Shown here: positions 31,255-46,349 of the stretch, piece after piece
Layout: each line of letters starts with the position of its first letter
How positions within the stretch are numbered: the first letter of the stretch is position 1
The notes under the pieces: model-generated
Seen by the model: the letters and a program-made list of their open reading frames with translations, nothing else
What the model was told of the DNA's origin: nothing
Database searches by the model: none
Program-made: the position numbers and the translations under genes
From: an uncultured Bacteroidales bacterium
GTDB lineage: Bacteria > Bacteroidota > Bacteroidia > Bacteroidales > Paludibacteraceae
Assembly (NCBI GenBank): GCA_902784585.1
Contig: CACZVM010000011.1
Location: 5,824 to 69,823 of the forward strand
DNA length: 64,000 nucleotides
Direction of reading: 5' to 3'

Positions 31255-31262
31255 AAAATCAC

Positions 31263-31300
31263 AAAAAAATGGCATACAAACTTGCGTATGTCATTTTTTT
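31263..31300 (+). terminator. Intrinsic terminator after the GHL10 gene
   Basis: The 8-bp stem TGGCATAC/GTATGTCA is flanked by A7 and T7. Confidence 0.55.
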
Positions 31301-31312
31301 GTAGTACCTTTG
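31282..31312 (+). promoter_or_regulatory. Promoter for the zeta TA pair
   Basis: TTG is at 31282-31284, inside the loop of the preceding terminator. TACCTTTG is at 31305-31312. Confidence 0.55.
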
Positions 31313-31333
31313 CAGTCGCAAAGGTTTAGAATT

Positions 31334-31489
31334 ATGGATGATTATCGTTTCATAAACATTGATCAGGAGCCGACAGAGGAACAATTGGCACAATTGATGC
31401 ACGAAGTAGCCGTGGAGGCAAAAGAGCGCCACGATCGTGCTCATGCGGCATATTTTGAGCATATACGTCAAATGGCGCAAGCATTATGA
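31334..31489 (+). CDS. Putative antitoxin of the zeta-toxin-like pair
   Basis: A 51-aa acidic helical product, MDDYRFINIDQEPTEEQLAQLMHEVAVEAKERH... Its stop overlaps the start of the downstream kinase (ATGA), and its own promoter lies 22 nt upstream. Confidence 0.4.
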   Translation: MDDYRFINIDQEPTEEQLAQLMHEVAVEAKERHDRAHAAYFEHIRQMAQAL

Positions 31490-32082
31490 GAAAGCCTGTT
31501 TTGATAGTAATCGCCGGCCCTAACGGTTCTGGGAAGACTTCCACCACGCGTTTGGTGATCAAACACGAGTGGGCAGAGCAGTGTGTGTATATCAATCCTG
31601 ACGAGATCGCACAAAGCAAGTTCGGAGACTGGAATGATGTGAATGCCGTGCGTCAAGCGGTTGAGTACTGCGAAGAATGGCGGGAACAACTCTTGCGTGA
31701 GCACAAAGATTTTATCTTTGAAACGGTACTATCTTCCGATGGAAAAGTGGATTTTTTGAGACAAGCGAAAGAAGAAGGCTATTTTATTCGCATGTTCTTT
31801 ATCTGCACCGAATCACCTACCATCAATGCAGCTCGAATAGCAAACCGCGTCATGGAAGGCGGGCACGATGTACCTATTCAAAAGATTATATCACGTTACG
31901 AGAAAGCGATAATCAATGCCATCAAGGTAGCCGGCTTTGCAGATAGAGCATATTTCTATGACAACTCCATCGACAATCAAACCGCAAAATTATTATTCCG
32001 CACCGTTGATGGTAATCTCGCTAAACAATACGTAGAGGCACTCCCTCAATGGACGGAAACAATTTTTGAAACAATACGATAA
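31486..32082 (+). CDS. Zeta-toxin-family P-loop kinase
   Basis: It has the Walker A IAGPNGSGKTS. The size (198 aa) and layout are typical of the Zeta_toxin/AAA_33-like family, and it is translationally coupled to the small upstream ORF. Confidence 0.65.
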   Translation: MRKPVLIVIAGPNGSGKTSTTRLVIKHEWAEQCVYINPDEIAQSKFGDWNDVNAVRQAVEYCEEWREQLLREHKDFIFETVLSSDGKVDFLRQAKEEGYFIRMFFICTESPTINAARIANRVMEGGHDVPIQKIISRYEKAIINAIKVAGFADRAYFYDNSIDNQTAKLLFRTVDGNLAKQYVEALPQWTETIFETIR

Positions 32083-32382
32083 ACCCTCGTCGCTTGCGGA
32101 CGTAAAACAGCAAGGACAAGCGCTGGTGAGCGCTACATAGAAAAAGCGTTTGCTTTATTTGAGGAAACTGTTCATTTCTCGACAACTTGAATTTTGGCTT
32201 TCCCGAATACTGCGAAACGCTCACGTGTTCACGTGGGCTTTTTGCGTATATTGGAGCCAAAAGGGAGTCGAGACCCGAACAAACCAATATAGAAGGCAAA
32301 AAGTTCACGTTTTTGTGTGACCCATATACAATTTATTACTTAAAACCGACGAGGCGATGGGATATAACTGCCAACAACTATA

Positions 32383-32832
32383 ATGAAAAAGATATTGTTT
32401 ATTATTCTGGCTGCGCTGCCACTATTGTTTGCCTCATGCGAAAAAAAGAACGATACGAGTGTGGACAATCCAAAGAGTGATATAGGAGTGGAATGGATTG
32501 TTTATGAAAATAATGGAGAAAATTATGCCCCTTGTATGTATTTTCAAGATGGAAATCTTGTATGCCTTGAGGAAAGTAATGTTATCTGGGATAATTGGGT
32601 TTCATCTGTCGGCAAGGTAAAAAATTTGAAGGATGTCAACTATGTACCATCGGACTGGGGGAAATCAATAAAGATTGAAATAGGTCATGGCTATGTTCTT
32701 AAATACCATGAATCGTATTCTTATACTTGCTTATACACCCGTCTCCGTGTTTTGGAATACATTGACAAAGGAGAAGCAAAGGGTTATAGAATTCGTATTC
32801 AGCAGAAGTGGGATCCTCTGAGAGATGAATAA
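32383..32832 (+). CDS. Hypothetical lipoprotein
   Basis: The signal peptide with lipobox is MKKILFIILAALPLLFASC. The gene is AT-richer than its surroundings. Confidence 0.5.
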   Translation: MKKILFIILAALPLLFASCEKKNDTSVDNPKSDIGVEWIVYENNGENYAPCMYFQDGNLVCLEESNVIWDNWVSSVGKVKNLKDVNYVPSDWGKSIKIEIGHGYVLKYHESYSYTCLYTRLRVLEYIDKGEAKGYRIRIQQKWDPLRDE

Positions 32833-32840
32833 ATTTGCTT

Positions 32841-32904
32841 TGCACAAACGGAAATCCGTTGTGTGCAATGAGACAGTGGCGGCAGAAATGTCGCCGCTGT
32901 TTTT
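32841..32904 (+). terminator. Double-hairpin terminator module T1 after the lipoprotein gene
   Basis: Hairpin TGCACAAACGG-AAA-TCCGTTGTGTGCA is followed by GGCGGCA-GAAA-TGTCGCC (32878-32895) and GCTGTTTTT. Confidence 0.55.
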
Positions 32905-33140
32905 AATGCCGCATGGACTACATTCGCATTTATCGTGTATCGGGCGGGCGAAGCGATAGCGAGACGCGAGGGCGAAGAAATCGTTCGAGCGAAGCGAGAT
33001 AAGAATTGTCCGCACGCAGAGGGCGGACGCGAAGGACGACTACCGCCAACGTCCGAGCTAACAAAAGGAGCGCGGCTCATCCGATGAGCCTGAAAGAGAA
33101 GAAAGACAAGCGGCGGCAGAGATGTCGCCGCCTGTTTTTT
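32905..33140 (+). ncRNA. Candidate structured RNA unit U1 (unclassified)
   Basis: Paralog of U2. It ends in hairpin GGCTCAT-CCG-ATGAGCC (33074-33090), a purine tract GAAAGAGAAGAAAGA, hairpin GGCGGCA-GAGA-TGTCGCC (33112-33129) and a T-tract. Confidence 0.35.
33112..33140 (+). terminator. GNRA-capped terminator hairpin T2
   Basis: GGCGGCA-GAGA-TGTCGCC followed by GCCTGTTTTTT. Confidence 0.55.
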
Positions 33141-33430
33141 CTCGCAACTAACGTTACGAGCACAGGACAAAAAGGCTACACTCCGCATGGCGCCACATCC
33201 GCATTGAGCCTCTTCCGGGCGGGGCGAGACGTTTGGCTATGCTGGAATTTGATTCCAGCGCAATAGACAAAGGCTCGGACGGAAGGAGGCGAACAATGTC
33301 CACATGCAGAGGGCGGAAGCGAGACGCTAAACCGCCTATGCGGCGAGCAAACAAAAAGCGGAGCGGCGGATCACATCCGCCTGAAAGGGAAGAAAGAACT
33401 AGCGGCGGCAGGGATGTCGCCGCTTATTGT
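33141..33430 (+). ncRNA. Candidate structured RNA unit U2 (unclassified)
   Basis: Same 3' module as U1 with compensatory changes. It has hairpin GGCGGAT-CAC-ATCCGCC (33365-33381), the tract GAAAGGGAAGAAAGA, and hairpin GGCGGCA-GGGA-TGTCGCC (33404-33421). Confidence 0.35.
33404..33430 (+). terminator. GNRA-capped hairpin T3 (abuts the stop of the convergent 144-aa gene)
   Basis: GGCGGCA-GGGA-TGTCGCC followed by GCTTATTGTT. The T-tract is weaker than in T1 and T2. Confidence 0.4.
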
Positions 33431-33864
33431 TATCCGAAGGGGCGTTCTTTGCGGATGACGGCGCGGATGAAATTGTCTATGCGGGCATAGATGAGGTAGT
33501 TGCCATCTTTGTCCTTCGGAGCAATTGGATCCGGTGTGCCGTTGAGCTGGGCATAGAAACGGGCTTTATAGCCGTCTAAGAGGGCCTGTTTGTCTGCCGG
33601 AAGGGGCGTTTTGAACTTGAGGGAGTCGATGAGTTCTTTGGCGAAATGTGAAGCTGCACCGAACTGCGACATATTAGCCCGTTCACGGATAAGAGCCGGG
33701 GAAGTCTTGAAATTACGAGGAGCCGGTTTGTACGCCTCCAGACGACCGACTTTGGTTATATTGCCTTCATAGTCCCGAAAATGCTTGCGACGCTCCACCA
33801 ATCCTTCTTTGGAATGTGCTCCGCGCATCTCCAAGATGTCGGGTGTGTGTTTGATTTTAGCCAT
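33430..33864 (-). CDS. Hypothetical protein (144 aa, basic)
   Basis: An intact ORF, MAKIKHTPDILEMRGAHSKEGLVERRKHF..., with its own canonical promoter and a ~135-nt leader. I recognise no motif. Confidence 0.45.
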   Translation of the reverse strand: MAKIKHTPDILEMRGAHSKEGLVERRKHFRDYEGNITKVGRLEAYKPAPRNFKTSPALIRERANMSQFGAASHFAKELIDSLKFKTPLPADKQALLDGYKARFYAQLNGTPDPIAPKDKDGNYLIYARIDNFIRAVIRKERPFG

Positions 33865-33944
33865 ATTTACTATTCGTAGAATTTAGTTAATTCTTAATCA
33901 AGGAGGTCTTTAGTAGCAGTTTATCTGCAGATTACGCCGATAAT

Positions 33945-34000
33945 GACGCACTTATCACGTACTTATCACCAACTTATCACGCACTTATCACGCACTAATT
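33945..34000. repeat. 11-bp periodic repeat (ACTTATCAC core x4) in the leader of the 144-aa gene
   Basis: GCACTTATCAC GTACTTATCAC CAACTTATCAC GCACTTATCAC GCACTAATT. Confidence 0.75.
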
Positions 34001-34005
34001 TTGCG

Positions 34006-34036
34006 CAAAATTACTACATTTTTTCGGTTTTTGCAA
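34006..34036 (-). promoter_or_regulatory. Promoter for the 144-aa gene 33430..33864
   Basis: On the minus strand TTG is at 34034-34036 and TAATTTTG at 34006-34013. The -7 box is half of the perfect palindrome TAATTTTGCGCAAAATTA. Confidence 0.5.
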
Positions 34037-34208
34037 GAAAAAACGACCGATTTTTTAAGCATTCTATACTATATTATATATAAAATATATAATATACATA
34101 TTGCAGGCTTTTTTGAGAAAGAAAGAGGGACTCGCAACAAAAGTTACGAGCACGGGACGAAGAATTGCGATAAAATATACTATTTTTAATAAAAAATAGC
34201 GTAAACTC

Positions 34209-34239
34209 TTGCACATGTCAAAAAAAAGCAGTAACTTTG
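34209..34239 (+). promoter_or_regulatory. Promoter for the NifU-like/GGGtGRT operon
   Basis: TTG is at 34209-34211 and A8-GCAG-TAACTTTG at 34232-34239. Confidence 0.6.
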
Positions 34240-34294
34240 CACCGCAAAATGTGTGAAACATAAATTTTTAAACAAACAATACATTTAATCTAAC

Positions 34295-34966: not shown

Positions 34967-35977
34967 ATGATTCGTGAAGTAAAATTTGAGTCGCAAGACC
35001 GCCGCGAGAAACAGATTCTCGCCGCTCTGAACGCGAATGGTATCGCTTCCATCGAGGAGGCAAATCAGATTTGCGAGCAATATGGCCTCGATCCGTATAT
35101 GACTTGCGAGGAGACCCAGCGTATCTGCTTTGAGAACGCCAAGTGGGCATATGTAGTAGGTACGGCTATCGCCTTGAAGAAGGGTTGCAAGAACGCCGCT
35201 GACGCTGCCGAGGCTATCGGTATCGGTCTGCAGGCCTTCTGTATCCCGGGTTCTGTGGCTGACGACCGCAAGGTAGGTATCGGTCACGGTAACTTGGCAG
35301 CCCGTCTGCTGCGCGAGGAGACCCAGTGCTTTGCATTCCTGGCAGGCCACGAGAGCTTTGCAGCTGCTGAGGGCGCTATCAAGATTGCCGAGATGGCGAA
35401 CAAAGTTCGTAAGAACCCGCTTCGCTGCATACTGAACGGCCTCGGCAAAGACGCTGCTATGATCATCAGCCGTATCAACGGTTTCACATACGTACAGACC
35501 GAGTTCGACTACTTTACCGGAGAACTGAAAGAGGTTCGTCGCAAAGCATATTCGAACGGTCCGCGTGCGAAAGTGAACTGCTACGGTGCAGACGATGTTC
35601 GTGAGGGTGTAGCTATCCTGTGGCACGAGAACGTGGATGTCAGCATCACAGGTAACTCGACCAACCCGACGCGCTTCCAGCACCCGGTAGCAGGTACGTA
35701 TAAGAAAGAGCGTATCCTGGCAGGCAAGCCGTACTTCAGCGTAGCCAGCGGTGGTGGTACAGGTCGTACCTTGCACCCGGATAACATGGCTGCAGGTCCT
35801 GCTTCGTACGGTATGACGGATACCCTCGGCCGTATGCACAGCGATGCACAATTTGCAGGTTCGAGCTCCGTTCCGGCACACGTAGAGATGATGGGCTTCC
35901 TGGGTATCGGTAACAACCCGATGGTAGGATGCACCGTAGCTTGCGCTGTGAACGTAGCATTGGCGCTTAACAAGTAA
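34967..35977 (+). CDS. GGGtGRT-family protein (conserved, function unknown)
   Basis: It contains the family-naming motif SGGGTGRTLHP. Length is 336 aa. Confidence 0.7.
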   Translation: MIREVKFESQDRREKQILAALNANGIASIEEANQICEQYGLDPYMTCEETQRICFENAKWAYVVGTAIALKKGCKNAADAAEAIGIGLQAFCIPGSVADDRKVGIGHGNLAARLLREETQCFAFLAGHESFAAAEGAIKIAEMANKVRKNPLRCILNGLGKDAAMIISRINGFTYVQTEFDYFTGELKEVRRKAYSNGPRAKVNCYGADDVREGVAILWHENVDVSITGNSTNPTRFQHPVAGTYKKERILAGKPYFSVASGGGTGRTLHPDNMAAGPASYGMTDTLGRMHSDAQFAGSSSVPAHVEMMGFLGIGNNPMVGCTVACAVNVALALNK

Positions 35978-36632: not shown

Positions 36633-36670
36633 AAAAAGAACGCATATGCACACGCATGTGCGTTTTTTTT
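36633..36670 (+). terminator. Intrinsic terminator after the small OMP gene
   Basis: The 10-bp stem ACGCATATGC/GCATGTGCGT has loop ACAC and is flanked by A6 and T8. Confidence 0.65.
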
Positions 36671-36700
36671 ATATAAAGTGAAATAAAACACACAAAAAAT

Positions 36701-36731
36701 TTGCGTATATCAACTATTTTTCATATCTTTG
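36701..36731 (+). promoter_or_regulatory. Promoter for the ten-gene operon
   Basis: TTG is at 36701-36703 and TATCTTTG at 36724-36731. Confidence 0.55.
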
Positions 36732-36787
36732 CGCCCAAATAAGTTATATTTTTAGCAAAATAAGATTAAATACATCTATTTACTATC

Positions 36788-37801
36788 ATGAGCGAGTATA
36801 AGAAAAGAGGTGGTGATGTGTTGCATTGCCCTAAATGCGGCGCCATCGTGCCGGAGTCTGCGTCGGTGTGTCCCGAGTGCGGCCATGAGTTCAGCGAGAT
36901 AGAAGCCAACAGCAGTTCCATGCTACTGGCGACGCTGCTGGCCCAGACGGATGATTACGAACGTCAGTGTCAGATCATTGAGACCTTCCCGTTGCCTAAT
37001 TCGAAGGTCGATCTGCTGGAGTTTGCCACGGCACTGAAGCCCCGAATCAAGAACATCGACAACCCGCTGGCAGATGCGTATATGGTGAAATACCAGGAGT
37101 TGATTGAGAAGATCAAGACGTCGTTTGCAAAAGATCAGCAGCTGATGCGTTTTGTGAACGAGTTTGATGCGCTGTATGCTGAGATAGAAGTGAAGAAGAA
37201 GAAAGCCGACCGTCAGTACTGGTTCAGCGAGCACTCGAAGCTGCTGATCACGTCGGTGGTGATTGTTCTGGCGCTGCTGATAGGCGGCGGCGTGCTGATT
37301 GCCTTCCGCGACACAGCTGCGAACAATGCGGACCGTTGCGTGACGGCGGTGACGAAGGCGGTGGATAAGGACAACCTGAAGAAAGCCCGTAACTTCCTCG
37401 TGAGCTACAAGAAAGACAAGGATGAGGTGATCGAAGGCTACGTGACGCTGCTGAGCAAATATCTGGACGAAGGCAAGTGGGAAGACGCGAAGTCGCTGGT
37501 GGAATATTACGGCCAGGGCGAATACACCAAGCCGCTGAACAAGGGTCTGTTCAACTACCTGCTGTCGATCGGCGAATATGAACTAGCGGAGAACTATATC
37601 AACGTAGAAGAGAAGCCGACAGACAGAGAGTATTACACCTACATGGAAGAGTGCGTCAAACTGATGTGCCAGGCAGGAATGCTGAGTGAGGCGCAAGCCT
37701 TCATTGCCAAAAAGGCGTTGCACTACGCAGCCAGCTCGGGCTACTACAGCAAGACCCGCGTACAGGAGAGGCTGAACAAGATAGTCAATCAATACAAATA
37801 A
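36788..37801 (+). CDS. Operon gene 1: zinc-ribbon, single-pass membrane protein
   Basis: It has CPKCG-x13-CPECG at the N-terminus and a TM helix LLITSVVIVLALLIGGGVLIAF. The helical-repeat-like C-terminal half is predicted to be on the other side of the membrane. Confidence 0.6.
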   Translation: MSEYKKRGGDVLHCPKCGAIVPESASVCPECGHEFSEIEANSSSMLLATLLAQTDDYERQCQIIETFPLPNSKVDLLEFATALKPRIKNIDNPLADAYMVKYQELIEKIKTSFAKDQQLMRFVNEFDALYAEIEVKKKKADRQYWFSEHSKLLITSVVIVLALLIGGGVLIAFRDTAANNADRCVTAVTKAVDKDNLKKARNFLVSYKKDKDEVIEGYVTLLSKYLDEGKWEDAKSLVEYYGQGEYTKPLNKGLFNYLLSIGEYELAENYINVEEKPTDREYYTYMEECVKLMCQAGMLSEAQAFIAKKALHYAASSGYYSKTRVQERLNKIVNQYK

Positions 37802-37814
37802 TGGCACAGTTTTT

Positions 37815-37848
37815 GAATTGAGAATTATAAATTAAGAATTAAAAAAAA
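37815..37848. repeat. AATT-family heptad array between operon genes 1 and 2
   Basis: GAATTGA GAATTAT AAATTAA GAATTAA AAAAAA. Confidence 0.6.
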
Positions 37849-37857
37849 TATAGTACC

Positions 37858-39456
37858 ATGGGACTTTTTGGTTTTGGTAAGAAACATGACGGAGGCGTCA
37901 TGGACGCCATCAATGCGGATGGCATGGGTAATCACATTGTATGGCAGTGGCGCCCGAAAGGACAAGATCTGGACACGTCGAACAAAGCGAATGCTATCCG
38001 CATGGGTAGCGGTTTGCTGGTGAATGACGGCCAGGCAGCGATGTTCCTTTATCCGAACAGCAACCAGTCGGATGTCATCCTCGGCTACCACAACGACACC
38101 ATCGATTCGAGAACCGGCAACTACCCCATCCTGGCCAACATCATCGGTGCGGCCTATGACGGCAGTACGCCGTTCCAGGCACGTATCTACTTCGTGTCGA
38201 TGGAAGGTGGTATGCAGGTGAATTTCTCAACGGAAGGATTTGTAGAGACCCGTCCGTCGCAGCCGAACCTCTCGATGTACACCGTCAAGGTGGCTGTGAG
38301 CGGTTCGCTGATGTTCTCTTGTGTTCCGACTGACATGCAATTGGATTTCCTGTACAAGCAGGCACAGCAGAACGGATCGCAGATGACGTACGAGGAATTC
38401 CGCGACACGACCCTGAAAGAGGCGGTGCGTAAGATCTTCCGTATGTGCAAGGGACAGAACACCACACTGGACATGCTGCAGGACAAGATCAAAGACACCA
38501 TCAAGACCGAGTTGATCGATCGCGTAGCGAACATCCCCGACGGTATCTTTGTGCTTCACCTGAACAAGTTGACCAAACAGTTCTCACAATATATCTACGA
38601 GCAGATCTACCCGATCATGCGTGACTCGATCGGTATATGGCCGACCCGCATGAACATCACCGACATCCGTTTTGACGAGTCGACCGATGAATTCCAGATG
38701 TTGAAGCGCATCACCACGGGTCAATCGTTCAACATCAGCATGCAGAACGAAGAGAACCTGCTCAGCCAGTTGGCTACCGATGCAGCTGTTCGCAACGGCA
38801 TGGTGGCACGTCAGGCCGAGATTCAGATGGATCATCAGGAAGACATGATGGCCAGAATGCGCGAAGAGGCACAGTTTGCACAACACACGCAGACGGAGAG
38901 CACTGCTCACCGTACCGATCTGGCTTCGGAGACCGCTTATCTGGGTGCACATACCGTGAACGTACAGGGTGCAGTGATGCAGACCGGTATGGAGAACATC
39001 GGCAACATGGGCACGATGGACTTCGGTGCAGGCGACAACATGAACCCTGCCGGCATGATGATGGGCATGGGTATGGCCGCCGGTATGGCCGGTCAGATGG
39101 GTCAGATGATGAGCAACATGGGCAATGCATTCAACGCCCAAGTGGCAAAAGCCGGTGCACCCACTCCTCCGCCGATGCCGGGACAGACGCCTCCGGCACC
39201 GACCACGCCGCAGGCCCCTGCCTTCTACGTACTCAACAACAACCAGCAGATGGGTCCGTATGACATGAACACCTTGCGCCAGCTGGCTGCCTCGGGTATG
39301 CTCAACGCCCAGACGATGGTATGGACTCAAGGTATGCCGCAATGGGACGCAGCAGGTCGGGTATCGACTCTCGCGCCGCTCTTCCAAGCGCCGCAGCAGA
39401 CGCCACCGATGCCGCCGACGCCTGGTAGCATGCCACCGCCACCTCCTGCGATGTAA
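37858..39456 (+). CDS. Operon gene 2: SPFH/Band-7 protein (YdjI/COG4260-like) with Met/Gly- and Pro-rich tracts and a C-terminal GYF_2 domain
   Basis: The N-terminal pattern is IVWQWRP...IRMGSGLLVNDGQAAMF...PFQARIYFVS. Then come GMMMGMGMAAGMAGQMGQMM and PTPPPMPGQTPPAPTTPQAP. The GYF_2 signature is FYVLNNNQQMGPYDMNTLRQLAASGMLNAQTMVWTQGMPQWDAA, and the tail is PPMPPTPGSMPPPPPAM. Confidence 0.65.
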   Translation: MGLFGFGKKHDGGVMDAINADGMGNHIVWQWRPKGQDLDTSNKANAIRMGSGLLVNDGQAAMFLYPNSNQSDVILGYHNDTIDSRTGNYPILANIIGAAYDGSTPFQARIYFVSMEGGMQVNFSTEGFVETRPSQPNLSMYTVKVAVSGSLMFSCVPTDMQLDFLYKQAQQNGSQMTYEEFRDTTLKEAVRKIFRMCKGQNTTLDMLQDKIKDTIKTELIDRVANIPDGIFVLHLNKLTKQFSQYIYEQIYPIMRDSIGIWPTRMNITDIRFDESTDEFQMLKRITTGQSFNISMQNEENLLSQLATDAAVRNGMVARQAEIQMDHQEDMMARMREEAQFAQHTQTESTAHRTDLASETAYLGAHTVNVQGAVMQTGMENIGNMGTMDFGAGDNMNPAGMMMGMGMAAGMAGQMGQMMSNMGNAFNAQVAKAGAPTPPPMPGQTPPAPTTPQAPAFYVLNNNQQMGPYDMNTLRQLAASGMLNAQTMVWTQGMPQWDAAGRVSTLAPLFQAPQQTPPMPPTPGSMPPPPPAM

Positions 39457-39493
39457 TGTTGAATGTTTAATGTTGAATGTTTAATGTTGAAGG
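39451..39493. repeat. (AATGTTK)x5 heptad array between operon genes 2 and 3
   Basis: AATGTTG AATGTTT AATGTTG AATGTTT AATGTTG. It begins at the stop codon of gene 2. Confidence 0.75.
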
Positions 39494-39496
39494 AAT

Positions 39497-39871
39497 ATGA
39501 ATCCACAAGATTTTGATGCGTTACTAAGCACGCAATCAGGTTTCTACAGTCAGACCCAGATGGTGAACTCGGATGCCAACCACCAGTTGACGCAACAGGC
39601 CCTGCAGAATGTACAGGCGATGCAGACGGCCGTCCCCATGGGCAACGTGCCCGGTGTACCCGTCTCGCCGGCCTTTGAGCAGATGGCTCAGGAGCGCAAG
39701 GCGCTAGAAGCACAGTTCCATGTACTGCTGAACGGCGCCCAGAAAGGTCCGTTGACGCTGGAACAGTTGAAAGGTCTGGCTATCGCAGACGTGATTGACG
39801 AGAACACGCAGGTATGGCGTGTCGGCACCAAAGACTGGACGGATCTGAAGACCTGTCTTAATAATCTCTAA
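39497..39871 (+). CDS. Operon gene 3: small GYF_2 (DUF4339-like) domain protein
   Basis: A Gln-rich N-terminus is followed by FHVLLNGAQKGPLTLEQLKGLAIADVIDENTQVWRVGTKDWTDL. Confidence 0.55.
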   Translation: MNPQDFDALLSTQSGFYSQTQMVNSDANHQLTQQALQNVQAMQTAVPMGNVPGVPVSPAFEQMAQERKALEAQFHVLLNGAQKGPLTLEQLKGLAIADVIDENTQVWRVGTKDWTDLKTCLNNL

Positions 39872-39892
39872 TCACCCAAAAACGTGATTGAT

Positions 39893-40201
39893 ATGAACGA
39901 TTCTTCTGACATGTTCGACAAAGTAGTGGAGTTTGGCATGGGCATGGCTCTCTGTCAGCAGATTCCGCAAATGATGAATGCGGCCAGCGCAGCAGCCAAC
40001 CAACCCGCTCCGCCTCCCGTACCACAGGCCACGGCTTATTTTCTGGCTATCGAAGGCAAGCAGTATGGTCCGTTCACTGTAGATCAACTGCGTCCGTTTG
40101 TACCTACCGGCCAGATCAACGGTCAGACGCTGGTATGGTGTCAAGGGATGAGCGGATGGGAGCCCGCCTCGACCCGAGCCGACATAGCATCTATTTTATA
40201 A
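39893..40201 (+). CDS. Operon gene 4: small GYF_2 (DUF4339-like) domain protein
   Basis: It has QPAPPPVPQ followed by YFLAIEGKQYGPFTVDQLRPFVPTGQINGQTLVWCQGMSGWEPA. I prefer ATG 39893, but GTG 39884 is also possible. Confidence 0.55.
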   Translation: MNDSSDMFDKVVEFGMGMALCQQIPQMMNAASAAANQPAPPPVPQATAYFLAIEGKQYGPFTVDQLRPFVPTGQINGQTLVWCQGMSGWEPASTRADIASIL

Positions 40202-40228
40202 TTCGTTAACCGACAAATACATACAACA

Positions 40229-40567
40229 ATGAAAATCAATCCATTTCTGACGATCATTGCGCTGCTGTTCGCAGCAATCGTATCGTACGCACTTTATTCC
40301 TACTGCCACGCAGAGGCGTTACGATGGTTGATCACCCTGTTTGGCGGGGTAAGTATCTTCTTGGCATGGGCCGGTACGATCGCGGTAAGCCTGACAGAGA
40401 AAAAACGCAATGTGAATTTCAAAGTGATGAACGGTCTGTTCGCTACAGCCATCACCGCCATGCAATTGATCTTCACGTTCTCGGCTGTAAGCACGCCGAC
40501 GTATCTGCTGTGCAGCGGCGTATTGCTGCTGGTATGGCTGACGCTGGCATATGCCATGGCCAAATAA
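40229..40567 (+). CDS. Operon gene 5: 4-TM miniprotein
   Basis: Four hydrophobic helices in 112 aa (FLTIIALLFAAIVSYALY, LITLFGGVSIFLAWAGTIAV, GLFATAITAMQLIFTF, LLCSGVLLLVWLTLAYA). Confidence 0.5.
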   Translation: MKINPFLTIIALLFAAIVSYALYSYCHAEALRWLITLFGGVSIFLAWAGTIAVSLTEKKRNVNFKVMNGLFATAITAMQLIFTFSAVSTPTYLLCSGVLLLVWLTLAYAMAK

Positions 40568-40607
40568 ACGATAATTAACTTTTTATTCACCTCAAATAAC
40601 TACAATT

Positions 40608-41288
40608 ATGAAAAAACTGTTGATGGTTGCTATGGCCTTAATCATAGCGTGTGGTGTCAGCTATGCTGAAGAGAAAGACATGAAACAACTGCGCAAAGAG
40701 CGTGCAGAGTTGCGTAAACTGTCCGCAAAAGAATTCAACACCAAAGCTACCAAGGCTGCTCGCAATGAAGCAAAGGCCCTGAAGAAAGAAGGTTGGAAAG
40801 TTAATCCGGGTGCACTGCCCCTGGAGAAACAGCTGGACAACTCGTATCTGAAGCAACAGGAGTTTGACGATGATCTGTTCCCGAAGTATATCATGGCAGA
40901 CGGCAAGTCGATCGGCGAGAGCTACGAAGCTGCCCGCGCTGCTGCCACAAGTCTCGCCATCAGTTCGCTTGCCGGCCAGATTCAGACGGAGGTGGCTGCC
41001 CTGATAGAGAACACTATCGCCAACAAACAGCTTGCTCCGCAGGAGGCTGCATCTATCGTTGAGACCGTTCAATCGAGCAAGAACCTGATCACACAGTCGA
41101 TCGGACGTACGCTGCCGCTGGTAGAGTGCTATCGTGAACTGAAGAAAAACGGTAACATCGAAGTACTGGTTCGCATCGCTTACAGCGAGAAAATGGCGAA
41201 AGAGGCTGTGAAGAAAGCAGTTCGTGAAGAGCTGGAGAAGAAGGGTGAGGACCTGCACGAGAAGTTGGACAAAGCCCTTGGTTTGTAA
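40608..41288 (+). CDS. Operon gene 6: exported (possibly lipo-)protein with LPP20-like motif
   Basis: The signal is MKKLLMVAMALIIACGVSYA. It also has GKSIGESYEAARAAATSLAISSLAGQIQTEV, plus Lys/Glu-rich helices at both ends. Confidence 0.5.
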   Translation: MKKLLMVAMALIIACGVSYAEEKDMKQLRKERAELRKLSAKEFNTKATKAARNEAKALKKEGWKVNPGALPLEKQLDNSYLKQQEFDDDLFPKYIMADGKSIGESYEAARAAATSLAISSLAGQIQTEVAALIENTIANKQLAPQEAASIVETVQSSKNLITQSIGRTLPLVECYRELKKNGNIEVLVRIAYSEKMAKEAVKKAVREELEKKGEDLHEKLDKALGL

Positions 41289-41306
41289 TCCACAAAAGAA
41301 ACGTCT

Positions 41307-42233
41307 ATGAAACGTTTTCTATTCTTTGTAACGGCACTGCTGTTCCTCGGGACGGCAGTAGCCGCTGACAAAGTAATCCAATCATCCGCCAAACGAGCCC
41401 CCGGTTGGATCGGCGGCATGGGCGAAGATTATTTCATCGTGAGCGCAGAGGCGCCCACCCTGGATGAAGCCCAGCAGAAAGCCATGAACCGTGTACGCGA
41501 AGAGATCATCGCAGCTATCGCTACGCAAGTTCATTCCGCCACCTCCATCACCATTCGCGAGGTGACCGAGAACGGCGTGATTGACTCGCATAAGGACATA
41601 CAGAGTGAGGTCAGCGTAAAAGCAGCTGACATTCCCTATCTGGCCAGTATTTCACCCTCTCTGGCTAGCGATTACTACTGGGTGAAAGTACGCAGAAGCG
41701 ACAAGTCGGTGTACTACGTGTACCATATTCTCTATCCGCTTTCGGCATCCAAACTGCGCATGCTGGTGGATGAATATGACAAACAGCAGAAGCAGATCAA
41801 CGACTCGCTGCAGGCTTTTGCATCCGTCAACATGGCCAATTATGACGACCTGAACAAGATGCTGATGCAATACACAGCGCTTAGCCGCTTCGAAGCAGGA
41901 CTGCACGAGGACGACAACCGTCATGCCATCTGCAAGACGATCCTGAACGGCTACGACAAGATGCTGGCCGGCAACCTGCACATAGAGACGATTGCATCGG
42001 ACCGCCAGCAAACGACCGTCGCACTGATGTACGGTCCGAAACGCATCCAATACACGGTGGTGCCCAAGGTGAAGAGTAACTGTATGACCGCTATCCAAAC
42101 GAAAAGCGAAGGAAATGCCACCCGCATCTCCTATGACTTCGAAACCGGTTGTTACGACGACGATCAGAACTGGCTCGATGTCACCTTCACCGTCAATACG
42201 AAGAAAATATCAACACGTTGTTATATTAAGTAA
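41307..42233 (+). CDS. Operon gene 7: exported protein with LPP20-like N-terminal motif
   Basis: The signal is MKRFLFFVTALLFLGTAVA. It also has GGMGEDYFIVSAEAPTLDEAQQKAMNRVREEIIAAIATQV. Confidence 0.5.
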   Translation: MKRFLFFVTALLFLGTAVAADKVIQSSAKRAPGWIGGMGEDYFIVSAEAPTLDEAQQKAMNRVREEIIAAIATQVHSATSITIREVTENGVIDSHKDIQSEVSVKAADIPYLASISPSLASDYYWVKVRRSDKSVYYVYHILYPLSASKLRMLVDEYDKQQKQINDSLQAFASVNMANYDDLNKMLMQYTALSRFEAGLHEDDNRHAICKTILNGYDKMLAGNLHIETIASDRQQTTVALMYGPKRIQYTVVPKVKSNCMTAIQTKSEGNATRISYDFETGCYDDDQNWLDVTFTVNTKKISTRCYIK

Positions 42234-42250
42234 CCAAAAGGTTTCCTGTT

Positions 42251-43972
42251 ATGAACAAACAATTCCTACTCTTAGGGTTGACTCTGGCTCTCAGTATGTC
42301 TGCTTTTGCAGGCCAGGTGAAGAGAGAAGTCATCTCTTCGGATTATTCCCGTAATAGCGTCTCCAAAATTGCCATTGTGTATGATGACCAGTGGAATCGG
42401 GAGACCAGCCAAGGTTTTGACGCCATCGACTTCGGTGCCAAATTTGACATCAACCAGCTGCAGACTAAGACGATTCAATTGCGTGGCGCAGCACGTACGA
42501 CGGGCAACACCTCCGCACAGACCGACATCAACACCCGGACGCTGCTAACCAATTATATCAACCAGCATAATATCGGTAAGGAGATCTTCGACTACATCCT
42601 GATGGTGGATCAGAATGGCCGGTTCCACTACGACCGAATGGTAGCTCGCAGCCGTTGGAACGCCAACGATGAAGATGTCAAGTTGGACAATGCCTCGCAA
42701 GTAAAGACCATGGATGAGAACGGACCTGCTCTGCTGAAGAACAGCTACATCGTGGTGTTTGACGCCAAAGAGACACGCGTAGAGGAGAAGACCAACAGTT
42801 ACGGAGAAAGGGTCAACGAATACAAAGCCGTTGTCTCGGCATATGTCTTTAAGATTGACAATGCAGATGAGGTGATCAACAACATCTTGCACAACATGTG
42901 GATCTACGACACGGACGATGCCGCCACCGTGGCTGCCAAGCGCGAGGCATACAACAAGGTGCGTATCCCGATGCGATGCGTGACCGCACAAGCCACCTCT
43001 GCTTCATCAGAGAAATCAATGCACGAAGCCATCGCCGGCTCGTATGAGAACCTGCTGAGCAAGATGGAGAATAACATCGCCGCATGGGAAGTGAAGATCA
43101 CTCCTGAGCAAGTTCGTCCGTACATCACTGCCAAGATCGGTAAGAAAGAAGGACTGAAGAACGGTCAGCGATTCAAGATTCTGAAGAACAAGGGCGACGA
43201 AGACAAGGGCGATCTGCGTACCGTAAAAGTAGGTTACGCGCGTGTGACGACCGTGGCTGACAACAACTCAGTGGCTACCGGCAACACCGCTACTTCGTCC
43301 CTCTACCAGATCTCCGGTAAATACCTGAAGGGCACAGAGTTCCTCAAACAGAGCAACGACATCAAACTGGGTCTGAGTATCGACTACAACTACAACGGTC
43401 TGGGTTGGGACAACCAGAATGTGTTTGGTGCATTCTCGATGGTAGACCTCACGCTGGACTACCTGATGCACATCCAACGCAACGGTATCTCCCACTATGC
43501 TCGCGTCAACTTCGGTTACGATATAGCCACCAGCAAGATGCTGCGCAACGGCTACAAGAATCGGAATGACGTAAGCGAAGCCCAAGCAGAATATGCTATC
43601 AAAAACGATGAATGGTTGAAAGATGGCGTTTCGTTCTTCAACATTTCGATCGGTTATATGGTTGGATTGAAAGCAAAACAGGTATTCGAATTGCAGCCGA
43701 TGTTCAATGTAGGTGTCGATCTGCCTATTTGCCATGCCAAGGACGCCATGAGTTCTGACGAAAAGAAATCTAACTTCGGTGTATTCATCGATCCGGCCGT
43801 ACGTCTGGTATTCAACTGCGGCTACCCGTTCCAGATCTTCTTCCAAACCGACTATTGCGTCACTGTATACCAAGGTGGCACCTACAAACGACTGAATGAT
43901 AAACTAGGTGAATGCGGCCGCAAACGCAATTACGGTCTAGGTGTAGCAGCCGGTGTTAAATGGACATTCTAA
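42251..43972 (+). CDS. Operon gene 8: exported protein with C-terminal outer-membrane beta-barrel
   Basis: It has the signal MNKQFLLLGLTLALSMSAFA and a ~330-aa soluble region. The last ~220 aa have alternating-strand character and end in ...YGLGVAAGVKWTF. Confidence 0.55.
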   Translation: MNKQFLLLGLTLALSMSAFAGQVKREVISSDYSRNSVSKIAIVYDDQWNRETSQGFDAIDFGAKFDINQLQTKTIQLRGAARTTGNTSAQTDINTRTLLTNYINQHNIGKEIFDYILMVDQNGRFHYDRMVARSRWNANDEDVKLDNASQVKTMDENGPALLKNSYIVVFDAKETRVEEKTNSYGERVNEYKAVVSAYVFKIDNADEVINNILHNMWIYDTDDAATVAAKREAYNKVRIPMRCVTAQATSASSEKSMHEAIAGSYENLLSKMENNIAAWEVKITPEQVRPYITAKIGKKEGLKNGQRFKILKNKGDEDKGDLRTVKVGYARVTTVADNNSVATGNTATSSLYQISGKYLKGTEFLKQSNDIKLGLSIDYNYNGLGWDNQNVFGAFSMVDLTLDYLMHIQRNGISHYARVNFGYDIATSKMLRNGYKNRNDVSEAQAEYAIKNDEWLKDGVSFFNISIGYMVGLKAKQVFELQPMFNVGVDLPICHAKDAMSSDEKKSNFGVFIDPAVRLVFNCGYPFQIFFQTDYCVTVYQGGTYKRLNDKLGECGRKRNYGLGVAAGVKWTF

Positions 43973-43986
43973 TACGATAAGAGTAT

Positions 43987-45402
43987 ATGAAAAAGTATTT
44001 TATTTTCGCGTTGGCGATGCTGATAGCCATGCCGATGATGGCCGGCAAACCGCGTCATGCCGCTGTCTTTGACGACCCGCAGTCGTACTCGTGCATGTTT
44101 ATCAATGTAGCCACCGCCGGAACGAAGAACATCAAAGTGTCGGGTATCGCGAAGAACAAAGATGCCGCTATCGAGCGTGCAGGAATGAATGCCGTCCATA
44201 CGGCTATCTTCAACGGTATTCCCGGTGGCAACAACGGTCAACCTACCCCATCCCTGTATGGCAGTCCCGCTCCCGCACCCGAACATCAGCAATATTTTGA
44301 CAACTTCTTCAACCAAGGTCAGTATAAGATGTTTCTGACGCAAGTGTCTGCGCCCTCGGGCAAAGACATGAGTGAGGTGAAAGGTGGTGTCCAGGTGAAA
44401 GTGGAGATCCAAGTTCGTTTCGACGAATTGAGGAAGAAGCTGATCAATGACGGCATCATCAAAGGACTGACCGATGCTATAGGCAGTGCGCAGAAACCCG
44501 TGATCATGATTTTTCCGGACGAGGACTGGTGTAAGTCGCATCGTTATACGATGGCGGATGATGCCAATACGGTGGATTACAACAAAGCCTTGTCGGATGT
44601 GAACATGAAAGATCTGATCAATGAGTTCACCAATTTCATGGTAAACGTATGCGGGTATGAATGCGAAGACCTGGCTGCTACCCTCAAGGATTTCCGTAAT
44701 GAGAAAGCCTGGGGCATGGCCGATGCCGTAGATGACGGCGAAGACAAGGCCGGTGGTGCACGCGAATTGCTGGCATCGGCCGCTAACGCAGATTTCTGCA
44801 TCGAGTTCTACCCCGAGTTGCGTCAAGACGCCGGCAAACAGTATGTCATCTTCCGCATCAAAGCGGTGGATGCCAGCACCAACAAGGCGTTCTACACGAT
44901 GTCCGCTCAGGGTACCAGCACCTACGGTTCCGGCCAGATGGTGAACCAACTCAAAGAGGCGGTACTCAACATCAAGGACGAGTTCATCGGTGCGCTGCAG
45001 AAGAAGTTTGGCAACATGGCCAAGAATGGCCGTGAGATTCGCCTGCTCATCCAACGCAAAGAGACTTGTCCCGTCAATTTTGCCAAGAAATACGACGGTG
45101 ATCCGCTGTCAAGTTGGATTGAGGACTGGCTGAATGCCAAAGTGCAAACCCCGGGCTTTACCTCCGGCAAGAACACAGCGAACAGGCTGGAATACAAACA
45201 GGTGATGATACCTCTGATGAAAGAGAAGAAAAACCGCGTCACCAAACGGACGGAGTTGCGCGCACAGAGTGCCAAGGACTTTGCCAACGAACTGGCTGAC
45301 TTCATCACTGAGACCACCAACCTGCCCTGCCGTGTGGACAGCCGCAGTATGGGTAAAGCCGTTATCACGTTGGGTCAAGACGACTCAGAAATGGACGAAT
45401 AA
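43987..45402 (+). CDS. Operon gene 9: exported hypothetical protein
   Basis: The signal is MKKYFIFALAMLIAMPMMA. The N-terminal motif is VSGIAKNKDAAIERAGMNAVHTAIF, and I recognise no catalytic motif. Confidence 0.5.
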   Translation: MKKYFIFALAMLIAMPMMAGKPRHAAVFDDPQSYSCMFINVATAGTKNIKVSGIAKNKDAAIERAGMNAVHTAIFNGIPGGNNGQPTPSLYGSPAPAPEHQQYFDNFFNQGQYKMFLTQVSAPSGKDMSEVKGGVQVKVEIQVRFDELRKKLINDGIIKGLTDAIGSAQKPVIMIFPDEDWCKSHRYTMADDANTVDYNKALSDVNMKDLINEFTNFMVNVCGYECEDLAATLKDFRNEKAWGMADAVDDGEDKAGGARELLASAANADFCIEFYPELRQDAGKQYVIFRIKAVDASTNKAFYTMSAQGTSTYGSGQMVNQLKEAVLNIKDEFIGALQKKFGNMAKNGREIRLLIQRKETCPVNFAKKYDGDPLSSWIEDWLNAKVQTPGFTSGKNTANRLEYKQVMIPLMKEKKNRVTKRTELRAQSAKDFANELADFITETTNLPCRVDSRSMGKAVITLGQDDSEMDE

Positions 45403-45424
45403 ACACCAATAATCTATAGCGATT

Positions 45425-46201
45425 ATGAAAAAATTATTCTATCTAATAGCCCTTGCCGGAACACTCATCTGTTCTGCACAAGCTCAGGAACCGGCAACAA
45501 CGGATGAAGCCGCATCCATTCCTTTGTCCGCCTACATGGATCCCTCTTTATCGATTCCTCAGAGTGCCCAAAAGGTGATGATTGACAAGATGCAGAAGAT
45601 CCTGTCGAAAAACGGCCTCGTCGCCACTGAAAACGAGCGTTTTATCGTCACGGCTAACATCAATGAGCTGAATGTAGAAAAGAGCGAAACGGCTCCGGTC
45701 GTTTATATCGTTACCCTGGAGGTGAATTTCTATCTGGGCGACGGACTCGACGCTATCCTCTACTCCAGTTGTTCGACAGAAGTGAGCGGTGCCGGCGAAT
45801 CGAAGCAGAAAGCCTACATGGCTGCAGTGAAAAAGATCAAGGTGAACGATCCTATGTTCAAGGCTTTTCTGGACAAAGGCAAGGCGCGCATCTTGGTGGA
45901 GCTCAGAAGAGCGCAAGCGGCCGAAGCTCAACGGATAGCAGAAGAGGAGGCGGCCCGCGCAGCAGAGCAAGCTGAACGCGAAGCACGTGAAGCACTGGAA
46001 CGCGAAAGACAAGAGGAGCGCGAAGCGGCTGCTGAAGCAGCTCGCGAAGAAGCGGCCCGTCAGGCACCCGAAGCTGCAACCAATTCCGTAAAGACTGTTC
46101 AGGAAAAGCAGAGCGGAAAGCCGGCAAAAACCGCTGCCAAAGCCGAGGCTAAACCGGAAGAGAAACCCAACTATCAAGTGAAGGGAAAATGGTTTAAGTA
46201 A
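45425..46201 (+). CDS. Operon gene 10: exported protein with highly charged Ala/Glu/Arg coiled-coil tail
   Basis: It has the signal MKKLFYLIALAGTLICSAQA and the motif VSGAGESKQKAYMAAVKKI. The C-terminal half is RAQAAEAQRIAEEEAARAAEQAEREAREALERERQEEREAAAEAAREEAARQ. Confidence 0.5.
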   Translation: MKKLFYLIALAGTLICSAQAQEPATTDEAASIPLSAYMDPSLSIPQSAQKVMIDKMQKILSKNGLVATENERFIVTANINELNVEKSETAPVVYIVTLEVNFYLGDGLDAILYSSCSTEVSGAGESKQKAYMAAVKKIKVNDPMFKAFLDKGKARILVELRRAQAAEAQRIAEEEAARAAEQAEREAREALERERQEEREAAAEAAREEAARQAPEAATNSVKTVQEKQSGKPAKTAAKAEAKPEEKPNYQVKGKWFK

Positions 46202-46217
46202 GCTGAAGCCTCCTATA

Positions 46218-46254
46218 CAAAAACGAGCTCGTCTCCCGACGAACTCGTTTTTTT
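46218..46254. terminator. Bidirectional terminator between the ten-gene operon and pepP
   Basis: The 12-bp stem AACGAGCTCGTC/GACGAACTCGTT has loop TCCC, A5 upstream and T7 downstream. Confidence 0.65.
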
Positions 46255-46349
46255 CATATAACAAACAATCTCCTATTTATCCACTAAGAACTAGTGTTAC
46301 TTACAATAAAGCAAACACCGTGCCAAACCGGACACAGGAGATCATTTTT

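Follow-up and report, generated by a model that had tools for sequence, protein, structure and literature searches.

SPFH proteins are membrane organisers found in all domains of life, and the branch to which YdjI (SamI) belongs has been studied in Bacillus only, together with PspA. The Bacillus YdjI protein has a region of low complexity as well as a C-terminal zinc finger, requires YdjG and YdjH for its localization to the membrane and, when membrane-bound, recruits PspA (PMC8581546; bioRxiv 10.64898/2026.02.06.704340). Here we describe a ten-gene operon that includes a gene for an SPFH protein of this type, in a stretch of 64,000 nucleotides (nt; hereafter the window) from an uncultured Bacteroidales bacterium of the Paludibacteraceae (contig CACZVM010000011.1); its products are labelled g1–g10 in gene order. 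The operon is real but composite, and consists of two separable modules, A (g1–g5), which contains the SPFH protein, and B (g6–g10), whose products are exported. The locus represents a widespread sister arrangement to that of Bacillus, present at no fewer than 425 loci, mostly in gut and rumen anaerobes, with a GYF domain as adaptor, dedicated small GYF proteins and no PspA. Both modules are found together in just a few lineages of gut Bacteroidales, where a recurrent facultative cassette (DUF6175 and three unnamed families) suggests a way to tie an inner-membrane scaffold to the outer envelope. We regard the coupling of A to B as a lead and not as a result, and the significance of the locus as moderate; no known rule is broken by it, and its function is one that we infer.

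The resemblance to the B. subtilis pspA-ydjGHI (samGHI) operon lies in the encoding, together with the SPFH protein, of a zinc-ribbon membrane protein (YdjG, here g1) and a multi-transmembrane protein (YdjH, here g5), and is a matter of the domain layout of g1 and g5 (112 amino acids, aa) and of gene pairing, not of sequence alignment. In these terms g1 is an analogue of YdjG/SamG, likened to it by domain layout, and g5 is a possible functional analogue of YdjH/SamH. A sequence-only reading made earlier on this DNA had drawn the parallel with Bacillus YdjG and YdjI, and it is an apt one, with the same pairing, the same SPFH type and a second membrane protein (PMC8581546; bioRxiv 10.64898/2026.02.06.704340). 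The window operon departs from SamGHI, however, in having no PspA gene, in the presence of a GYF domain and proline tracts in place of the C-terminal zinc finger of YdjI, in its two added small GYF proteins, in its diderm host, and in the exported genes that are part of the operon in this lineage. The SPFH/Band 7 plus GYF architecture is already known, having been catalogued with one Rhodopirellula example (Balaji and Aravind 2007, PMC2034487); that listing shares with this locus the same two domains, flanking proline stretches and neighbouring genes for transmembrane proteins, but it gives the architecture alone, with no operon, partner set or function. What is new is the SamGHI-like module variant with GYF adaptors; the exported cassette is an uncharacterised one.

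Two other groups of proteins provide points of comparison. As in GltJ of the Myxococcus xanthus Agl-Glt focal adhesion, a zinc ribbon and bacterial-type GYF domains are present on the cytoplasmic side, and in both PDB and NCBIfam the GYF domains found here match GltJ best. The GltJ protein has the layout zinc ribbon–linker–GYF–transmembrane helix, its GYF domain binds a proline-rich sequence, with AglZ as partner, and about 44% of the GYF proteins of bacteria also have a zinc ribbon (PMC11135422). Unlike GltJ, which has no SPFH partner, the window locus has its zinc ribbon and GYF domains on separate polypeptides, and the GltJ equivalog model (NF033761, cut-off 450 bits) is matched over the GYF region only, with a best score of 47 bits (g4). 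FlgT, GNA1162, CsgG, PelC and LpoB-type proteins are periplasmic and outer-membrane-proximal, and several of them form rings. The predicted folds of the N-terminal part of g8 and of g9 are like those of FlgT (Vibrio H-ring, PDB 3w1e/8z5n), CsgG, PelC, LpoB and GNA1162/DUF799, and, as with those sub-outer-membrane ring proteins, lipoprotein or barrel anchors are present; unlike the case of FlgT, CsgG, PelC and LpoB proper, however, there is no detectable sequence similarity, the global template-modelling (TM) scores are low, and genes for flagella, curli or Pel are absent from the surroundings.

The ten open reading frames (ORFs) of the operon, in window coordinates, are the following.

36788–37801, + strand: g1, N-terminal CPxCG...CPxCG zinc ribbon, cytoplasmic domain, one transmembrane helix, periplasmic domain.
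37858–39456, + strand: g2, soluble SPFH protein (Band_7_1, YdjI/SamI type) with a helical region, a Met/Gly tract and a GYF_2 domain.
39497–39871, + strand: g3, small cytoplasmic GYF_2 protein (44.5 bits, cut-off 25.8).
39884–40201, + strand: g4, small cytoplasmic GYF_2 protein (61.9 bits, cut-off 25.8).
40229–40567, + strand: g5, 112-aa miniprotein with about four transmembrane helices.
40608–41288, + strand: g6, exported lipoprotein with an invariant lipobox Cys15, found only in the closest clade.
41307–42233, + strand: g7, exported protein of an unnamed family.
42251–43972, + strand: g8, signal peptide, FlgT-like periplasmic alpha/beta domains and a C-terminal 8-stranded barrel.
43987–45402, + strand: g9, signal peptide, N-terminal domain and DUF6175.
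45425–46201, + strand: g10, exported protein in which an N-terminal alpha/beta domain precedes a low-complexity tract rich in E, A and R, with YQVKGKWFK conserved at the C terminus.

When the coordinates were re-checked, the ten ORFs were found to be co-directional on the + strand and to span 36788–46201, with gaps from g1 to g10 of 56, 40, 12, 27, 40, 18, 17, 14 and 22 nt, just as the sequence-only reading had described them. Three signals bound the transcription unit.

36646–36671, + strand: upstream terminator, a hairpin (36646–36663) followed by T8, which ends the preceding outer-membrane-protein gene and delimits the transcription unit on its 5′ side.
36701–36731, + strand: candidate Bacteroidota-type promoter, with a -33 TTG at 36701–36703 and a -7 TATCTTTG at 36724–36731, its function predicted from the sequence.
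46219–46256, no strand assigned: intrinsic terminator (A-tract, hairpin and T-run) common to the operon and the convergent aminopeptidase gene pepP, and conserved in relatives.

Both parts of the promoter, first noted in the sequence-only reading, are present at those positions. The claim that no further TAnnTTTG box occurs within the operon fails, as a second + strand copy (TATCTTTG, 38544–38551) lies within the coding sequence of g2; the motif is enriched across the window (45 seen versus 24 ± 5 expected), and with about 1–2 expected per 9.5 kilobases (kb) the copy in g2 is probably a chance match. The 3′ hairpin (about 46219–46252) folds at -16.8 kcal/mol (z = -6.3), in line with the strong terminator that had been proposed, and because there is an A-tract on its 5′ side it is plausibly bidirectional and serves the convergent pepP too. 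Scans with Rfam and for tRNA genes gave no match in or near the operon.

The composite nature of the operon is evident from the distribution of its parts. A g2-anchored search of species-representative genomes yielded the at least 425 matching loci, and 80 of these were examined and are the basis of the neighbourhood counts given here. Their hosts include Bacteroidales (Prevotella, Alistipes, Muribaculaceae, Bacteroides, Paludibacteraceae), Treponema and other spirochaetes, Clostridia, Lachnospiraceae, Ruminococcus flavefaciens, one Bacilli metagenome-assembled genome (MAG) and one Algoriphagus MAG, so that the core is not specific to the Bacteroidota, as had been suggested, but extends to spirochaetes including Treponema, to Clostridia and Ruminococcus, and to a Bacilli MAG. 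A gene encoding a zinc ribbon, a cytoplasmic domain and a transmembrane helix accompanies the SPFH-GYF gene in nearly all 80 loci, located either before the SPFH gene or after the gene for the 4-transmembrane protein, and the pairing of a zinc-ribbon membrane protein with a YdjI-type SPFH protein, noticed originally in this one sequence, is thus general. Small GYF genes and the 4-transmembrane miniprotein accompany SPFH-GYF in most of the Bacteroidales and spirochaete loci, with a g5 homologue adjoining the SPFH-GYF gene in about 39 loci of these two groups. This co-occurrence suggests that module A is a functional unit. The genomes nearest to the window are uncultured Bacteroidales/Paludibacteraceae MAGs, several of them from ruminant gut, with g2 identities of 50–72%, and contigs 98–100% identical to the window are present in a JGI metagenome (Ga0310786_10000027, 228 kb) and in Logan assemblies. 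One locus titled Dialister sp. CAG:486 (L013) has a Bacteroidales-type core (zinc ribbon, SPFH-GYF, two GYF, 4-transmembrane) and groups with Bacteroidales/Paludibacteraceae MAGs on the SPFH tree; because both its core and its tree position are Bacteroidales-like, a binning error or horizontal transfer is suggested.

Module B, searched for with g8 and g9 as anchors, has a distribution of its own; a metagenome scan with a narrow DUF6175 alignment gave 12 loci. Together g8, g9 and g10 constitute an independent cassette, which sometimes includes a g7 homologue and in which g9 is sometimes represented by two genes. Cassettes that stand alone, in loci where SPFH genes are absent within 10 kb (L084, L085, L088, L096–L101 and L102), have the gene order g8-g9-g10 or g9-g10-g8. 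Where the two modules are adjacent they occur in either order. Module A precedes module B in all nine species-level relatives of the window, and the whole arrangement is conserved there; module B precedes module A in L022, L015, L011 and the deep-branching pair L089/L103, the order in this pair being g8′, g9N′ (the g9 N-terminal domain), DUF6175, g10′, zinc ribbon-transmembrane protein, SPFH-GYF, GYF, 4-transmembrane protein and g7′. In a neighbour-joining tree of the SPFH-GYF proteins the B-linked loci occupy at least four separate positions among relatives that have no module B. Because the adjacency recurs independent of gene order, a pattern that is a classic sign of functional linkage, a link of this kind between A and B is plausible.

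Within the operon, the g8–g10 cassette has a different history from the genes that precede it. Whereas g1–g7 of the relatives are 58–83% identical to those of the window, the cassette at the same position is just 21% (g8), 27% (g9) and 41% (g10) identical, and stand-alone cassettes are closer to that of the window (58% for g8, 67% for g9 and 58% for g10). DNA comparisons of g10 (with L084 and L091–L095 versus L004, L007–L009 and L026) show that window positions 45527–45844, in the 5′ part of g10, match stand-alone cassettes only (65–70%), and that positions 46163–46298, with the last ~13 codons of g10 and the terminator, match only the operon end of the SPFH-linked relatives (80–93%). A junction can be placed between these segments.

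45845–46162, no strand assigned: right-hand recombination junction in g10, between stand-alone-type and relative-type DNA matches.

The junction falls in the E/A/R-rich tract of g10; in place of this tract every homologue has a helical domain that contains Cys. The YQVKGKWFK peptide is encoded at the retained 3′ end of the gene. As the protein identities and the g10 DNA matches agree, the body of g8–g10 was exchanged by recombination; the resident cassette gave way, at an unchanged position, to a paralogous one, and the operon 3′ end and terminator were kept. The composition profile shows no anomaly over the swapped cassette. The relatives carry an extra gene, absent from the window, between g7 and the barrel gene (L004 7250–8446; L005 14528–15730; L001 7910–9106); it encodes an exported protein of 398–400 aa with a Gly-rich collagen-like tail (GKGGKGGKGGEGG...).

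The proteins of module A were assigned to families largely as in the sequence-only reading, which had recognised a zinc ribbon with one transmembrane helix in g1, an SPFH domain, Met/Gly and polyproline tracts and GYF_2 in g2, GYF_2 in g3 and g4, and a 4-transmembrane protein in g5. In Pfam, g1 matches UPF0547 (32 bits) and Zn_Ribbon_1 (27.6 bits), and it has a conserved cytoplasmic domain at about residues 43–150, a transmembrane helix at 153–171, and a lineage-specific periplasmic domain of ~160 aa. The SPFH region of g2 matches Band_7_1 (PF13421; 50.3 bits with a cut-off of 24, profile positions 8–127 of 211), a family to which YdjI presumably belongs and which is present in 120/120 g2 homologues among the matches listed. 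A hydrophobicity scan found no hydrophobic segment in g2, which hence has no transmembrane anchor of its own. Its GYF_2 domain (PF14237, residues 457–505; 62 bits, cut-off 25.8) is preceded by a proline-rich tract at 432–455 and followed by another at 513–532 that forms the tail of the protein, and these tracts, together with an NPAGMM-type Met/Gly tract, are conserved family-wide. A proline tract precedes each of the GYF domains of g2, g3 and g4, e.g. QPAPPPVPQ immediately N-terminal to that of g4. The true start of g4 is likely the ATG at 39893, giving a product of 102 aa, because its homologues are 102–103 aa long. No Pfam family was matched by g5. The Met/Gly-rich tract of g2 (about residues 371–430, window 38968–39150) contains 15 Met and 14 Gly in 65 residues, with a motif NPAGMMxGM that has residues invariant across Bacteroidales, spirochaetes and Clostridia, and could be a membrane- or peptide-binding surface.

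All five proteins of module B start with a hydrophobic N-terminal signal sequence, and the exported proteins have no homology to characterised pathways; on both counts the original description of signal-peptide proteins of no recognisable function stands. LPP20, which had been put forward as a candidate family, is not borne out, with g6 scoring 14.9 bits against the LPP20 model (PF02169), below its cut-off of 25.9. The g7 family comprises 351 clusters at 50% identity in length classes of ~305 and ~430 aa, has no Pfam model, and is represented in L102, L089 and L103; it occurs also in cassettes without an SPFH gene. The beta-barrel that had been predicted, with a terminal GVKWTF, is present in the structure model of g8 (predicted local distance difference test, pLDDT, 85.5) as eight strands between residues 373 and 572, with the sequence ending in GVKWTF; the barrel matches Ail, OmpX and OmpA (Foldseek probability 1.00, TM-score 0.5–0.6 on the target), and the N-terminal part matches the FlgT/LPHT ring (Foldseek E = 5e-7 to 7e-7). 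None of the g8 homologues has a Pfam domain. The g9 protein matches DUF6175 (PF19672) over profile positions 2–293 of 293 with 180.4 bits (cut-off 23), and its model (pLDDT 77) matches FlgT (Foldseek E = 1e-5), GNA1162, CT253, CsgG, PelC, LpoB and the TolB N-terminal domain. A full-text literature search found no paper naming DUF6175, a family without assigned function, and the g9 model places it in the FlgT/CsgG/PelC/LpoB-like fold class, which we offer as a first structural hypothesis for the family. Searches of PDB sequences with g8 and g9 gave nothing meaningful. Profile-profile comparisons of the g6, g7, g8, g9 and g10 families with one another aligned nothing but signal peptides, and there is thus no evidence that these families are paralogues.

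Fusion of DUF6175 to an N-terminal domain distinguishes g9 from its counterparts in several other lineages, in which the N-terminal domain (~170 aa) and DUF6175 are separate adjacent genes (L008 12548–14024; L022 736–2252; L089 10820–12323; L102 1827–3338; L103 3332–4864); L084 (7584–8066) has an additional free-standing copy of the N-terminal domain. A Foldseek search of g9 against viral structures (BFVD) gave nothing informative. The weak matches include five uncharacterised proteins of Myoviridae sp. ctLnO19 (A0A8S5NZX9, NZY6, NZX2, P175 and P1R0), and either a cassette of this kind may be present on the ctLnO19 contig or the contig may consist of bacterial DNA mis-assigned as viral.

The reading that we favour, tentatively and with somewhat less than even confidence, is that module A forms an SPFH/GYF scaffold at the inner membrane, that module B forms a periplasmic assembly anchored in the outer membrane, that the coupling between them is facultative, and that the two act in envelope maintenance. 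In such a scheme g1 and g5 would be membrane receptors that recruit the soluble g2, which would oligomerise into a platform at the cytoplasmic face of the inner membrane. Because the GYF domain of GltJ binds a proline-rich sequence and proline tracts precede the GYF domains here, we propose that contacts of GYF domains with proline tracts, inside g2 and between it and g3 and g4, would be multivalent and could build, cross-link, cap or tune the platform. Module B would be a periplasmic assembly tethered to the outer membrane by the lipoprotein g6 and the g8 barrel, its body made up of the N-terminal domains of g8 together with g9, which have the predicted fold of proteins that form rings or oligomers beneath the outer membrane. 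Both modules would be expressed from one promoter in this lineage, would probably be used in the same state of the envelope, whether stress, maintenance or remodelling, and might also be physically coupled.

Several observations weigh against this reading. First, in profile searches homologues of g6–g10 lie within 10 kb of SPFH-GYF in 12/80 loci and none do so in 68/80, and because of these 68 loci the coupling of A to B is facultative at best. Secondly, no PspA domain is present in the ten products, nor does PspA appear in the families shown for 136 neighbours. Thirdly, the global TM-scores of g8 and g9 to FlgT are 0.17–0.28, and the fold shared with FlgT, CsgG and PelC is a small alpha/beta one of common occurrence; with FlgT the likeness is one of fold and not of family membership. 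For g6, g7 and g10, profile searches, including those against the PDB, gave no structural or family assignment. Fourthly, homologues of the g1 periplasmic domain are not conserved in other B-linked lineages and are present in some loci without module B, and co-transcription of g1–g10 is deduced from spacing and from promoter and terminator motifs. The ten-gene co-conservation that the sequence-only reading had named as a test of its proposal holds in the nine related genomes and breaks down elsewhere, where the B-less loci and stand-alone cassettes are found; of the trans-envelope scaffold that it proposed, a functional link between the modules is plausible in light of the two gene orders, and a dedicated machine is not demonstrated.

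A first alternative, which we judge unlikely though still a serious contender, is that the two modules are unrelated neighbours, the cassette having landed behind an SPFH operon and being read through from it with no shared function. Each module indeed occurs independently, the cassette is recombinationally mobile, and the neighbourhoods of module A are heterogeneous, with housekeeping, MobA/TnpV and defence genes among them. However, adjacency at no fewer than four independent positions on the SPFH tree, in two orientations and with very short gaps, would be unlikely to arise by chance for an uncommon family, and after the swap this position was still occupied by a cassette of the same family.

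The opposite alternative, that all ten products form one obligate envelope-spanning complex with g1 (and g5) as the bridge, appears rather improbable. The tight packing between a single promoter and terminator, the full arrangement in nine related species-level genomes, the recurrence of the A-B association in a second gene order, and the pairing of a ~160-aa periplasmic domain in g1 with a barrel and folds typical of ring formers in module B would all suit such a complex. The modularity, the swap and the existence of monoderm carriers weaken, however, the case for an obligate ten-protein machine: most A loci have no B and many B cassettes have no A nearby, module A is also present in monoderm Clostridia and Bacilli, and g8–g10 were exchanged for paralogues (21–41% identity) while g1–g7 were kept at 58–83%; nor do homologues of the g1 periplasmic domain track module B. 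A more restricted form we consider improbable: in some gut Bacteroidales a cytoplasmic cage or platform of g2–g4, with g1 and g5 as its anchors, would make physical contact through the periplasm with an outer-membrane-anchored, FlgT/CsgG-like ring of g6–g10. If true, this form would give non-flagellated bacteria an envelope-spanning scaffold of a kind not known before, whose outer module is interchangeable and possibly under diversifying selection; no flagellar genes are present in the operon or its flanks. The g1 periplasmic domain, the one obvious connector, was considered as a specific link to module B and downgraded, its homologues not tracking that module; physical coupling of A and B via this domain is possible but unsupported.

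A role for module A in conflict or anti-phage defence at the membrane, whether as the system itself or as its sensor or scaffold, with variable partners (the exported cassette among them) as effectors or exclusion factors, we think very unlikely. The patchy cross-phylum spread of module A in gut bacteria suggests horizontal transfer, PD-T4-3 (three loci, E down to 1e-72), PDC-S26-like PD-(D/E)XK proteins and GIY-YIG_2 proteins are encoded beside or inside the core elsewhere, and roughly 10/136 non-core neighbours, as a raw count, match PADLOC, with mobile-element genes also present. Against this, 0/10 of the operon proteins match PADLOC-DB v2 (E < 0.003), the window flanks are housekeeping genes (GGGtGRT, pepP, pdxJ, exbBD), and PD-T4-3 works as a stand-alone gene. 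Defence-type genes lie directly upstream of the core or between core genes in L037 (8450–9169), L069 (534–1295), L074 (8380–9138), L035 (11–1198), L050 (463–2464) and L052 (7509–9987); MobA/MobL, TnpV and type IV secretion system genes are also among the neighbours of SPFH-GYF loci.

Finally, a Glt/Nfs-like motility or surface-transport apparatus, in which g1 and the GYF proteins would be a split GltJ, is barely credible and was rejected in the form of a Glt-like motility machine, the match being limited to the GYF domain: GltJ is the best match of the GYF domains and has a zinc ribbon-GYF-transmembrane layout, zinc ribbons and GYF domains co-occur in ~44% of bacterial GYF proteins (PMC11135422), and an outer-membrane barrel, periplasmic proteins and, 3 kb downstream, exbB/exbD are all present, but the 47-bit score against a cut-off of 450 bits comes from GYF alone, Pfam and NCBIfam scans found no GltA-K, AglRQS, MglA or AglZ homologue in the operon, and the convergent pepP together with pdxJ separates exbBD from it.

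The operon is flanked upstream by a gene for a GGGtGRT protein and downstream by pepP, pdxJ, exbB/exbD and queuosine genes. The GGGtGRT-family protein (window 34967–35977) is unusually strongly conserved, because it is ~98% identical to its counterparts in the relatives and the operon proteins there are 50–72% identical. Further upstream, a ~2.2 kb segment (window 32083–34294) has short ORFs only, and to its left (window 31190–32082) there is a 4-nt overlap between a 99-aa ORF and the start of a gene for a 198-aa P-loop protein (GPNGSGKTS); to judge from its sequence this pair looks like a toxin-antitoxin system, perhaps of the zeta-toxin/AAA type.

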